Source: Escherichia coli 042 (GTDB lineage Bacteria > Pseudomonadota > Gammaproteobacteria > Enterobacterales > Enterobacteriaceae). From it: a DNA stretch of 64,000 bases. Positions 15,580 to 52,837 of the stretch are shown here, piece by piece (the first letter of the stretch is position 1; the number at the start of each line of letters is the position of its first letter). The stretch lies in NCBI RefSeq assembly GCF_000027125.1, contig NC_017626.1. One strand, 5' to 3'. The notes under the pieces are model-generated. The model was not told the origin of the DNA. It searched no databases and saw nothing but the letters and a program-made list of their open reading frames with translations. A program made the translations under genes and the position numbers.

Positions 15580-15981
15580 AAATGTTCCTCTTCTTATTGT
15601 ACTTAATTCCAAAGTAATTTTACGAAGAGAAATAAGTGAATGTAAGTGAAGTTAGTCACATAAAGAGATAGCAGATTTAGCTAAAAAAAGGGAAATAACA
15701 GTCCATGAAGCGTTGACATTACTTTCTATTCTACTAAGTAATTTCTCGACGATAAACAACTAATCTATTGATATTTAATAAATTATTGTATTTTACTGAC
15801 AAAATGCCGAATTGAGATCATAAATAATCATGCAACAGGTTATGCAAATGCATAAATATGTGATGAATGTCACTTATTTATTTCAATAAATATATCGCCT
15901 AAAAACAACGCGGGGCAGGGAATGGCTGCCCCATTTTAATTTTTACGTAGGGTGCGTGGTTGACTACTCGTTAGCAAATAA

Positions 15982-33938: not shown

Positions 33939-35531
33939 CTATAACCCAGGCGCTTTCCATAACGACGTCGTCAGTCCATGATCAACCAGCCCCAGCTGCT
34001 CCTGATAAACTGCCTGCCACTTATCCCGTGAATCCTGATAAAGTTCATGCTTTTCCGGGTCTGGTGTGTGCGTCCGTTCCCAGCGAACCAGGCGTTCTCC
34101 GGTTTCTGCCATTGATGAAAAAATTCCGGCACCGACGCCAGCTGCAATGGCACATCCTAATGCGGTGGCTTCTTTGACCACCGGAATATTGACGGGTAAT
34201 CCCGAGACATCAGCGAGAATTTGACTCCATAATTTCCCTTTTGAACCTCCGCCTGCAAAGACTAACGATGAAGGATGAATATTCGAGAAATCAGCGATTT
34301 GTTGCAAATTACACGCTGATACAATCGCCGCATTTTCTTCCAGCGCACGGAACAACGTCGCTTTGTTACATTTATCCGGATCAATAGACAAATTAATAAA
34401 GGAAGGCGCAGCGTGATACCAGGTTTTAAAGCGCATTCTGTCGGAGAATATCGGCATTACGCCCCACGACCCAGGCGGCACCCGACTTGCCATCTCTTCC
34501 AGCAGCGTATAGGTGTCGATGCCTAAACGTTCGGCAATCAGTTTTTCTTCGGCACAGAAAGCATCGCGGAACCAGCGCATGGTGAGTCCGGTAAAAAAGC
34601 TTATAGATTCAGCTTGTACCATGCCAGGAATAACATGAGGATTAACGCGCACGTTCATTTCTGGGTCTGTCACCGGCGCGGCTAAGTTTACAACTTGCTG
34701 CCAGAATGTGCCGCCAAGAACAGCGGTTTGTGCCGGACGCACAACGCCTAACCCCAGGCAACCAAGTTGCACGTCGCCTCCTCCAACGACCACCGGAGTG
34801 CCCGCCTTCAGACCGCAGAGTTCCGCCGCTTGTGAACTTACCACGCCCAGCAATGTGCCGGTTTCTTTGACAGGAGAAAGAATATCGGCCCGCAGTCCGG
34901 CCATATCCAGCAATGCAGGTTTCCAGTCACGGGTGGTTAGGTCAAGAAGTCCCGTGGTGCCAGCGTTAGAGGGATCCACCGCCAGTTCGCCGCTGAGCAT
35001 ATAGGCCAGCCAGTCGCTGATCATGGTGATGGTCGACGCCTGTCGGTAGATATCAGAACGATGGTGCGCCAGCCAAAGTAATCTGGGAATAGCGCTTAAA
35101 GCCAGCGTTTGTCCGGTGGCGCGATAAACTTCGTTTTCAAAGGTATTGTTGTGCAGTTCTTTAAGTTCGCTAACTTCGCGCGCCGCTCTGGCATCCACAT
35201 TGGCGCAGGCCCAGATCGGTGTTCCTTCATTGTTATATAAAACAATGCCTTCGCGCATCGAACATGCCGAAACGGCAGCGATATACTCCGGGGCTATGCC
35301 GGCGTTGTGCAGCGCCTGGCGCATACACTCACACGCCAGTTGCCAGTTTTTGTTGAGATCAAATTCCATAGAACCAGGAACGTCCGGTACTGCCAGATGC
35401 CGCCACTCCGCCTGTCCCACTGCTATTTGATTGCCTTCCAGGTCGAATATCACAGCCCGAATACTTCCGGTGCCTGCATCCAGCGCCATCAGGTAGTACT
35501 TTGATTCTGAAGGGGTAAAGAGTCGAGCCAT
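33939..35531 (-). CDS. lsrK: Autoinducer-2 kinase LsrK
   Basis: 530-aa FGGY-family sugar kinase; adjacent to lsrR, divergent from lsrACDBFG. Confidence 0.92.
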
Positions 35532-35609: not shown

Positions 35610-36563
35610 TTAAATACGTAAAATCGCCGCTGCTGTGTCCTGATCGGTAACCAGTGCGTTGATATAGCCGCCTTTCATTGCAGCGGCAATGGCTTCGGCT
35701 TTATTTTCTCCCCCTGCCACACCAACCCGGACGGGAATGGTCTTCAGCGCGCTTAAAGGTAAGCCAATCAGTTCGTTATGTATTTTAATATCCGTGACAA
35801 CGTCACCTTTTGCATCAAAAAAGTAGCCTAAAATGTCGCCAACCGCCCCTTTTCGACCAATCATTAACTGTTCGCCCTGGCTGATATAGCCGGAGCGAAT
35901 GATTGTTGCGTCGTCTTGTTGACTCACAGCCCCAATGCCGACAATCGCCACATCCGCTGCTTGCGCGGCTAGCAGAACGTCTTTGACGCAATTTTCATTT
36001 TTTAGCGTACGGGCAATGTCAGCGGAGGATGCCCGCAACGGAGCCGGAATAATATTCACACTGCACGCCGCGTTAAGCTGCCCGATACCCGTCATATAAG
36101 AACCGACGCCACCGGAGAGCGTGACCAGGCGAATTTGCTGTGACGAAATAAAACCACTTAAGCGTTGCAGCGTATTCATGGTTGCCTCGCCAAAACCAAT
36201 CGCCAGCATCTGTTGTGGTTGAAGTAAACTCATCAACATATGCGCCGCGCCTATCCCCAGTCGCCCGCCGACATCAGCATCCGCAAGCCCAGGGATCACC
36301 CGGACATGTTGTAGCGAAAACTGACGACGTAATTGTGTTTCATATTCCAGACAGCCTTCAAAGCGAGAATTAATCTGCACGCGAATAATGCCGGACTGAT
36401 GCCCTTTCTCCAGTAATCGCGACACTTTCAAACGGGTCAGCCCGAGACGATCGCTGATCTCGCTCTGGGTCAGCCCGTCGTGGTAGTAAAACCACGCGAT
36501 CCGCGCGACCTGTTCTTCTTCACACATTCCCTGTTCTGAAATTGCCGAATCGTTGATTGTCAT
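35610..36563 (-). CDS. lsrR: lsr operon repressor LsrR (SorC family)
   Basis: 317-aa ORF with N-terminal HTH and SorC-like sugar-phosphate-binding domain. Confidence 0.92.
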
Positions 36564-36628
36564 AATTCATTCTTCACTTTGAACATATTTAAATCTTTAA
36601 TGCAATTGTTCAGTTCTTGCGCATTTAT

Positions 36629-36650
36629 ATCTGTGATAGCAACCACAGTT
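36629..36650. promoter_or_regulatory. Candidate CRP site in the lsrR-lsrA divergent promoter region
   Basis: TGTGA-tagcaa-CCACA (36632..36647) matches the CRP consensus TGTGA-N6-TCACA at 9 of 10 positions. Confidence 0.4.
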
Positions 36651-36811
36651 TGACTCTACGAGCATGAACAAACGCAACCGTGAAAATCAAAATAGCATAA
36701 ATTGTGATCTATTCGTCGGAAATATATGCAATGCCCGCCTAAGGTTATGAACAAATTAAAAGCAAAAATACATTTGTTCAAAACTCACCTGCAAAACTGA
36801 ACGGGGGAAAT

Positions 36812-38347
36812 ATGCAAACGAGTGATACCCGCGCGTTACCGCTACTTTGCGCCCGCTCGGTTTATAAACAGTATTCAGGGGTTAATGTCCTGAAAGGCAT
36901 CGATTTTACGTTGCACCAGGGGGAGGTCCACGCCCTGCTCGGCGGCAATGGTGCCGGTATATCGACGTTAATGAAGATTATTGCCGGTATTACCCCTGCT
37001 GATAGCGGTACGCTTGAGATTGGGGGCAACAACTACACCAGATTAACGCCAGTTCATGCTCATCAGCTGGGCATTTATCTCGTTCCCCAGGAACCGCTGC
37101 TTTTTCCAAGCCTGTCGATAAAAGAAAACATCCTGTTTGGTCTGGCAAAAAAACAACTCTCCATACAGAAAATGAATAACTTGCTGGTGGCGCTGGGCTG
37201 CCAGTTTGATCTGCATAGTCTGGCAGGATCGCTGGATGTCGCCGATCGCCAAATGGTGGAAATCCTCCGTGGGCTGATGCGCGACTCGCAGATTCTGATC
37301 CTCGATGAACCTACCGCCTCGCTTACCCCTGCGGAAACCGAACGCTTGTTTAGTCGCTTGCGGGAGCTGCTTGCTACTGGCGTGGGTATTGTTTTTATCT
37401 CGCATAAGCTGCCGGAAATTCGCCAGATTGCCGATCGGATTAGCGTGATGCGCGACGGAACTATCGCCTTAAGCGGCAAAACCATCGAACTGTCTACCGA
37501 CGACATTATTCAGGCCATCACGCCAGCGCTACGGGAAAAATCGCTCTCTGCCAGCCAAAAATTATGGCTGGAGTTACCTGGCAACCGCCCACAACATGCC
37601 GCCGGAACGCCGGTGCTGACACTGGAAAACCTGACCGGCGAAGGTTTTATGAATGTCAGCCTGACGCTTAATGCCGGAGAAATTCTGGGGCTGGCTGGGC
37701 TGGTGGGGGCCGGACGCACAGAACTGGCCGAGACGCTCTATGGTCTGCGTACTTTGCGTGGCGGACGCATTATGCTGAATGGTAAAGAGATCAATAAATT
37801 ATCCACTGGAGAACGTTTACTGCGCGGTCTGGTTTATCTGCCGGAAGATCGCCAGTCATCCGGACTGAATCTCGATGCTTCGCTGGCCTGGAATGTCTGC
37901 GCCCTTACTCATAACCTTCGTGGATTCTGGGCGAAAACCGCGAAAGATAACGCCACACTGGAACGTTATCGTCGGGCGCTGAATATTAAATTTAACCAAC
38001 CGGAACAAGCTGCGCGGACCTTATCCGGCGGCAACCAGCAAAAAATCCTGATTGCCAAATGTCTGGAAGCCTCGCCGCAAGTATTGATTGTCGATGAGCC
38101 GACGCGCGGCGTGGATGTCTCAGCCCGTAATGATATCTACCAGCTGTTGCGCAGCATCGCCGCACAGAATGTGGCAGTGCTGCTTATCTCCTCTGATCTG
38201 GAAGAGATCGAACTGATGGCAGATCGCGTATATGTGATGCATCAGGGCGAAATTGCCCACTCTGCACTGACCGGACGCGATATTAATGTCGAGACCATTA
38301 TGCGCGTTGCCTTCGGCGATAGTCAGCGTCAGGAGGCGTCATGCTGA
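36812..38347 (+). CDS. lsrA: AI-2 ABC transporter ATP-binding protein LsrA
   Basis: 511 aa with two ABC domains (Walker [10 protein letters not shown], signature LSGGNQQK). Confidence 0.92.
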
Positions 38348-44344: not shown

Positions 44345-44504
44345 GGTTATCTTCAGGCGTGGAAAAGTCGCCCTATTAAACGTGATTACGATCACATTCT
44401 CAAGACGCTACGTACAAATTACCTACAAGCTTACAACATTTACAGGTGTGGCATATGGCACCCGTTAATGATAAAGGCACATAGGATGTTGTAACTAATA
44501 TAGT

Positions 44505-45992: not shown

Positions 45993-46218
45993 AATGGGTT
46001 CCCTTCTGATTAGTCATACAACCTGTTTGAATTGGTACGACAGGTTAGCAAACTTTAATACGCCGAACCCCTTTTTTGATCAACTCCTGATGATTAATGA
46101 GCAGTTTTATGAGAAAAGTGTGGCGCGGATCATGGTTTAATCGAGGAAACAGGCCTTTTCTTGGATCATAAAGTGGTAGAACACATTGCATTTAAATCGC
46201 TCTGAGTAAATAAAGATG

Positions 46219-52688: not shown

Positions 52689-52837
52689 ACCGTGATGTTA
52701 CCGACTCTCTGACGCGGAACAGAATCAGCGTCAGAGAAACGGAAAACGCGATCCAGATCACAAATGCATTGTATTCACATCATTAACCGTTTTAAGATCA
52801 TTTCATCACTTTTTCGCAACTCACCCGATAATCTGTT

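Follow-up and report, generated by a model that had tools for sequence, protein, structure and literature searches.

At class II CRP promoters, galP1 among them, the activator site is centred at -41.5 and lies over a weak -35 element. The class III tandem-CRP promoter acsP2 carries its two sites at -69.5 and -122.5, and at CytR-regulated promoters the CRP sites stand some 52–53 bp apart. For the lsr locus of Escherichia coli, the CRP box naming of PMC5137460 (Bentley laboratory) reportedly builds on Wang et al. 2005, which is said to be the gel-shift paper on lsr, and on Xavier & Bassler 2005.

The legend to Fig. 2 of PMC5137460 (2016) gives the order of boxes in the lsr control region as p-lsrR-box, CRPII, CRPI, p-lsrA-box, and the paper describes CRPI as "very close" to an octamer, TGTGCAAT, in which promoter up-mutations (TGTACAAT and TGTGTAAT) were obtained and for which a CytR site was proposed. 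Deletion of crp removes both Plsr-gfp expression and its repression by sugars, an effect also seen in an lsrR deletion strain, where sugar repression via CRP is fully intact (bioRxiv 10.64898/2026.06.09.730415). The same study, which scanned about 15,000 lsr loci with FIMO, describes CRP as an activator of lsrR as well as of lsrACDBFG, and detects a CRP site in no more than about half of the genomes that carry lsr. Genomic SELEX recovered lsrA among known CRP targets, without site resolution (PMC3105977), and the lsr genes have been classed as CRP incoherent feed-forward loops of type InCoh1 (PMC6121374). That a CRP site joins AI-2 quorum-sensing uptake to carbon status is textbook knowledge for lsr.

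Here we consider a candidate CRP site at positions 36629–36650 of a 64,000-nucleotide stretch of E. coli 042 (the window; all positions refer to it). We are highly confident that it is a real and already known CRP site. It is an ordinary, correctly read feature and not a discovery; the added value of the analysis lies only in a comparative argument for assigning it to the lsrR-side module.

Results

The site falls in the 248-bp gap (36564–36811; 34% G+C) between the divergent start codons of lsrR, which encodes the repressor (35610–36563, minus strand; NCBIfam NF011947, E = 1e-186), and lsrA, which encodes the ATPase of the AI-2 ABC transporter (36812–38347, plus strand; NCBIfam NF011967, E = 9e-286). 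Both genes are so annotated in RefSeq. Upstream lies lsrK (33939–35531, minus strand), and lsrC, lsrD and lsrB follow downstream of lsrA, all assigned by NCBIfam equivalog models. Read from lsrR to lsrA, the gap contains LsrR operator 1, the 36629–36650 site, a degenerate LsrR-like box, a second CRP site, the hexamer TAAGGT and LsrR operator 2. The operators share the form TGAACA-N21-TGTTCA and are conserved in 20 of 20 aligned sequences. Operator 1 (p-lsrR-box; 36580–36612) holds AAGATTTAA and, on the minus strand, AACAAT; operator 2 (p-lsrA-box) spans 36748–36780, the order being that of the PMC5137460 Fig. 2 legend. The TAATGCA that PMC5137460 places at -214 to -208 from the lsrA ATG fits exactly at window positions 36598–36604.

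This map also allows the published box names to be assigned. Since CRPI is near TGTGCAAT (36725–36732), it should correspond to TGTGATCTATTCGTCG (36703–36718). Nothing else that resembles a CRP site lies between operator 1 and CRPI than the 36629–36650 site, and from this and the order of the boxes we infer that it is CRPII. Searching full-text literature with the letters of the sites gave nothing of relevance.

A 501-bp stretch across the gap finds matches in 4,182 of 5,426 complete E. coli genomes, and lsrR and lsrA are the annotated neighbors in all listed matches; about 23% of the complete genomes are without this control region (window 36400–36900). The window carries a minority lsr allele: only 76 genomes reach 99% identity or more across the 501 bp, and an exact copy of the 40-mer containing the site is present in 132 of 4,171 E. 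coli genomes. K-12 MG1655 differs from the window by eight substitutions over 301 bp.

The letters at 36629–36650 are ATCTGTGATAGCAACCACAGTT, in which TGTGA (36632–36636) and CCACA (36643–36647) enclose the spacer TAGCAA (36637–36642). They coincide exactly with the canonical CRP frame of 22 bp, whose centre is at 36639.5; the corresponding K-12 coordinates are 1,601,307–1,601,328. The left, lsrR-proximal half-site is perfect, and the right one agrees with TCACA at four of five positions, so the core matches TGTGA-N6-TCACA at 9 of 10 positions with a single mismatch, C for T at 36643. We scored the site with an approximate, symmetrised CRP weight matrix built from 16 classic CRP sites. The result, 12.5 bits, is within the 10–17 bit span of the training sites, ranks fourth among the 63,979 positions of the window and is the highest of the lsrR–lsrA gap by far. 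The identical allele, spacer included, was scored by FIMO with a CollecTF-derived CRP matrix at 16.68 (p = 1.02e-6, q = 0.0076; bioRxiv 10.64898/2026.06.09.730415, Table S4), the top match in that table. The sequence-only reading had reported a 9 of 10 match of the form TGTGA-N6-CCACA between the divergent lsrR and lsrA promoters and had proposed weight-matrix scoring as a check. The letters bear out the match, lsrR (minus) and lsrA (plus) do flank it, and both matrices favor it. Two-fold symmetry over 22 bp, the TGTGA-N6-TCACA core and a score in the range of known sites are what is expected of a cAMP-CRP site, and all are found here. We discarded a reading as an FNR-type or other palindrome, as the half-sites are those of CRP.

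Several other positions of the window resemble CRP sites. The best match (52744–52765, AAACGCGATCCAGATCACAAAT, 17.9 bits) lies between yneK and ydeA, about 70–95 bp upstream of the start codon of ydeA, the L-arabinose exporter gene. Of a pair at 44378–44399 and 46116–46137, one (AAACGTGATTACGATCACATTC, 15.7 bits) is found a short way upstream of yneE and also downstream of uxaB, and the other, weaker at 10.8 bits, is found upstream of uxaB. Two further matches (15642–15663, 10.7 bits; 15856–15877, 15.7 bits) are 214 bp apart, in a part of the window beyond the stretch whose annotation was consulted.

A match of this quality could in principle be a functionless accident of AT-rich intergenic DNA. 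Across the whole 64-kb window, five sequences match the core pattern with at most one mismatch, compared with 1.89 expected. When the 248-bp gap was shuffled with dinucleotides preserved (n = 20,000), a 9/10 match arose in 1.3% of shuffles and an equal weight-matrix score in 1.9%, so that about 1–2% of shuffled gaps do as well. We also did not find an lsr entry in the CRP ChIP-exo supplement of Latif 2018; lsr may have been uninduced in the conditions used, and the missing entry is weak negative evidence with respect to CRP binding. Against an accident stand the requirement of lsr expression for CRP and the conservation described below, in which half-sites are 97.5% identical around a free spacer at a fixed position, in nine genera and in Salmonella. 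We consider a chance origin barely credible.

Conservation was assessed from a scan, with a single LsrR protein, of one genome per species, which yielded 26 loci and missed Salmonella, Klebsiella, Enterobacter and Yersinia. Nineteen of the 26 loci (Escherichia, Citrobacter, Kluyvera, Superficieibacter, Izhakiella, Mangrovibacter, Edwardsiella, one Serratia and one Enterobacteriaceae genome) align with the window across the full lsrR–lsrA gap, giving 20 sequences from nine genera when the window is included; the Buttiauxella regions were too diverged and were left out. The left half-site together with the preceding C36631 (CTGTGA) shows no change in any of the 20 sequences. On the right, 17 of them read CCACA, the exceptions being CCACG in one Citrobacter amalonaticus, CTGCA in Kluyvera and CCTCA in Serratia sp. 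H1w. The spacer between them takes at least 12 different forms across the aligned genomes. Over 12 representative lineages, identity to the window is 97.5% in the half-sites, 35% in the spacer and 64% in the gap as a whole. This pattern indicates purifying selection on the half-sites and not on the spacer, as expected for a factor that binds as a dimer and recognises both half-sites. At the matching place in Salmonella the sequence is CGTGA-TTAACG-CCACA (table of bioRxiv 10.64898/2026.06.09.730415).

The non-consensus C at 36643, which turns the right half-site into CCACA, is present in all 12 representative lineages, and CCACA is also found in Salmonella, which suggests that this imperfect base is under selection and no accident. 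Among the sampled E. coli genomes the spacer occurs as TAGCAA, TGGCAA and TGGCAG. The most divergent of the 4,171 E. coli matches, that of the clinical genome GN4741 (locus L028, 131–170), has TATGA in place of TGTGA in the left half, a natural mutation that would be expected to weaken CRP binding. For one sampled K. pneumoniae genome the listed CRP match is weak (score 8.9) and apparently lies within an LsrR box (bioRxiv 10.64898/2026.06.09.730415).

The alignment further fixes the distances between elements. From the end of operator 1 to the centre of the 36629–36650 site there are 27.5 bp in 20 of 20 sequences, and the second CRP site is centred 37.5 bp from the start of operator 2, again in 20 of 20, whereas the two CRP centres are 69, 70 or 71 bp apart according to genus. 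With the operator distances constant and the distance between CRP sites varying, only the stretch that separates the two CRP sites has accepted insertions and deletions, and each of these sites is locked to the operator and predicted core promoter of its own side. This comparative spacing ties the 36629–36650 site to the lsrR side, and its most direct effect is probably on lsrRK, the genes for the repressor and the kinase.

A simple consensus scan of the region for promoters and terminators found nothing, and hence the promoter elements proposed here rest on conservation and spacing only. On the lsrR side (minus strand), the predicted -10 element is AACAAT (36605–36610), which lies inside operator 1; from the CRP site to the lsrR ATG, no other -10-like hexamer (A at position 2, T at position 6) is invariant. 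It would be preceded, across a 17-bp spacer, by a weak -35 element, CAGATA (36628–36633, minus strand; 3/6), which the CRP site overlaps. Two letters of this predicted element agree with TTGACA, C36631 with its G and T36628 with its last A, and both stay unchanged across genera without being needed by CRP. Transcription would start near 36598, which centres the 36629–36650 site at -41.5 and lets operator 1 cover -14 to +19. On the lsrA side (plus strand), the prediction is CGGAAA-17-TAAGGT, with the -10 element at 36740–36745 and a start near 36752. The TAnnnT of this -10 is present in all 20 sequences, as TAAGGT, TACCGT, TACTGT or TATGTT. A start near 36752 would put the second CRP site at -41.5, operator 2 at -4 to +29 and the 36629–36650 site at -112.5.

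Three other hexamers were tried as -10 elements and rejected. TATAAA (36629–36624, minus strand) lacks conservation and would leave CRP at -22.5 from the lsrR start; TATGTT (36587–36582, minus strand) would put it at about -64.5; and AACAAA, inside operator 2, would as the lsrA -10 put CRPI at -50.5.

Published start sites were also consulted. The portion of the Kim 2012 start-site supplement examined lists an lsrR 5' end at window position 36570 (K-12 NC_000913.2 1599272, minus strand; 3 reads, 7-nt leader) and, as far as that portion goes, no lsrA start. A start at 36570 would put the 36629–36650 site at -69.5, not -41.5. This 5' end may be a processed one, as it lacks a plausible -10 element and is too close to the ATG to accommodate a ribosome-binding site. 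Near the lsr locus, the Cappable-seq supplement lists nothing. On the predicted start, we judge it an evenly balanced matter whether the 36629–36650 site acts as a class II site for lsrR.

The same distances bear on a second reading, in which the site is a real CRP site that chiefly serves lsrACDBFG, as a far-upstream second activator (about -112.5) working with the proximal site in a class III tandem. In the literature CRP figures mostly as the activator of the transporter operon; both sites are included in the 217-bp Plsr-gfp reporter, which requires crp; and 36629–36650 is the stronger of the two, the proximal one alone matching poorly. However, the 69–71 bp between the CRP centres correspond to 6.6–6.8 helical turns, which is out of phase and varies by genus; the distance that is held constant is the one to the lsrR-side operator; and -112.5 exceeds the usual reach of the alpha-CTD. 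A class III tandem at lsrA would place both sites on the same DNA face at a conserved spacing, and the 69–71 bp seen here do neither. This reading is possible, though clearly less probable than one centred on lsrR. The sequence-only reading had seen in the site catabolite control of AI-2 uptake. CRP control of lsr is documented, and to that extent the claim stands; the most direct effect of this particular site is probably on lsrRK, and the transporter would be affected only indirectly or from -112.5.

The second CRP site, CRPI (AATTGTGATCTATTCGTCGGAA, 36700–36721; centre 36710.5), is weaker, with 3.65 bits by our matrix and a FIMO score of 10.5 (p = 3.8e-5; bioRxiv 10.64898/2026.06.09.730415). 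The GTGATC within it is invariant across genera. Its left half is a perfect TGTGA (CGTGA in other genera) and its right half, CGTCG, is unrecognisable in E. coli. Scores are well above the E. coli value of 3.7 bits in Superficieibacter (10.7), one Enterobacteriaceae genome (8.4) and Edwardsiella (6.7). The 36700–36721 site ends 7 bp ahead of the TGTGCAAT octamer, which in the window reads TATGCAAT (G36726A relative to K-12, TGTGCAAT).

The octamer is the basis of a third reading, loosely proposed in PMC5137460, in which both CRP sites form a repression complex with CytR. Up-mutations in TGTGCAAT near CRPI led that paper to suggest CytR, and a further octamer, AACGCAAC (36671–36678), a 7/8 match to AATGCAAC, lies between the CRP sites. 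The 69–71 bp spacing is nevertheless unlike that of CytR-regulated promoters (about 52–53 bp), and neither octamer, including the 36725–36732 region, is conserved beyond Escherichia. The up-mutations TGTACAAT and TGTGTAAT may have a simpler explanation in an improved -10 match, from TGCAAT to TACAAT or TGTAAT (consensus TATAAT). We rejected a CytR–CRP co-regulated promoter on these grounds of spacing and octamer conservation, and consider such a complex very improbable.

Between the two CRP sites, at 36665–36697, lies a third LsrR-type box, TGAACA-N21-ATAGCA. With an LsrR box matrix built from 40 true boxes, the third-best match in each of the 20 genomes lies at the corresponding place of the alignment. 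The box is strong in Serratia sp. H1w (18.3 bits), Mangrovibacter yixingensis (15.7), Kluyvera (14.5) and Edwardsiella (14.2) and is eroded in E. coli, where it scores -6.3 bits and keeps the TGAACA half alone. The three LsrR-type boxes start at intervals of 85 and 83 bp, and each gap between them contains one CRP site. We found no mention of the third box in the lsr literature examined.

Such a layout invites the view that the role of CRP here is mainly architectural, its bend between LsrR boxes helping or hindering the bridging of boxes by the LsrR tetramer and so setting the sharpness of the AI-2 switch without contact to RNA polymerase. The box spacing itself, the tetrameric nature of LsrR (SorC/DeoR type) and a speculation on CRP–LsrR interplay in PMC3182856 all favor it. 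Set against these are the eroded middle box of E. coli (-6.3 bits) and the observation that CRP acts without LsrR, sugar repression being fully kept in an lsrR deletion strain; we regard a mainly architectural role as improbable. A broader proposal is that three LsrR-type boxes, spaced about 84 bp from one another and with a CRP site in each gap, make the lsr control region a phased array, that the 36629–36650 site is a class II activator of lsrRK and not of the transporter, and that the conserved non-consensus C and the eroded middle box tune the joint catabolite/AI-2 setting of the switch. No description of such a phased array was found in the literature examined, and taken as a whole we offer the proposal as speculative and rather unlikely.

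Discussion

A CRP role at the TGTGA/CCACA pair is supported by the sequence match, by conservation and by the CRP dependence of lsr expression. Sequence, our matrix, published FIMO scores and conservation in 20 sequences from nine genera agree in marking 36629–36650 as a cAMP-CRP site, by inference CRPII. Our preferred reading, which we consider likely, is that it is a functional cAMP-CRP dimer site in the control region shared by the divergent lsrRK and lsrACDBFG operons, equivalent to CRPII and a predicted class II activator of lsrRK, and that the second site does likewise for lsrA. When glucose and other sugars are scarce, cAMP rises, and CRP would bind TGTGA/CCACA and bend the DNA. From -41.5 it would stand in for the poor -35 element and bring RNA polymerase to the lsrRK promoter. 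LsrR on operator 1 (-14 to +19) would keep the lsrR promoter closed until phospho-AI-2 frees the operator. The weaker site at 36700–36721 would do the same job at -41.5 for lsrA. Each arm of lsr would in this way have its own module of CRP and LsrR, and LsrR would repress both arms until phospho-AI-2 builds up.

The result confirms that a true regulatory site can be found from sequence alone. If true, the lsrR-side role would also clarify the wiring of the CRP/LsrR feed-forward loop in the lsr promoters used in synthetic biology.

Compared with the CRPII box of the E. coli lsr locus, nothing of substance differs: locus, element order and sequence are the same except for one spacer base (TGGCAA in K-12, TAGCAA here), the window having a minority spacer allele. 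The predicted lsrR promoter resembles class II promoters of the galP1 kind in the -41.5 centre of the CRP site, a 3/6 -35 element inside that site, a 17-bp spacer and a moderate -10 element. It differs from them in that the lsrR start is a predicted one and in that the lsrR -10 element lies inside the operator of the repressor. Divergent sugar-type regulons with a CRP site for each arm offer a wider parallel, as in these, too, a global activator and a local repressor act on both a structural operon and the repressor gene; in lsr, however, the inducer is a phosphorylated quorum signal and not a nutrient.
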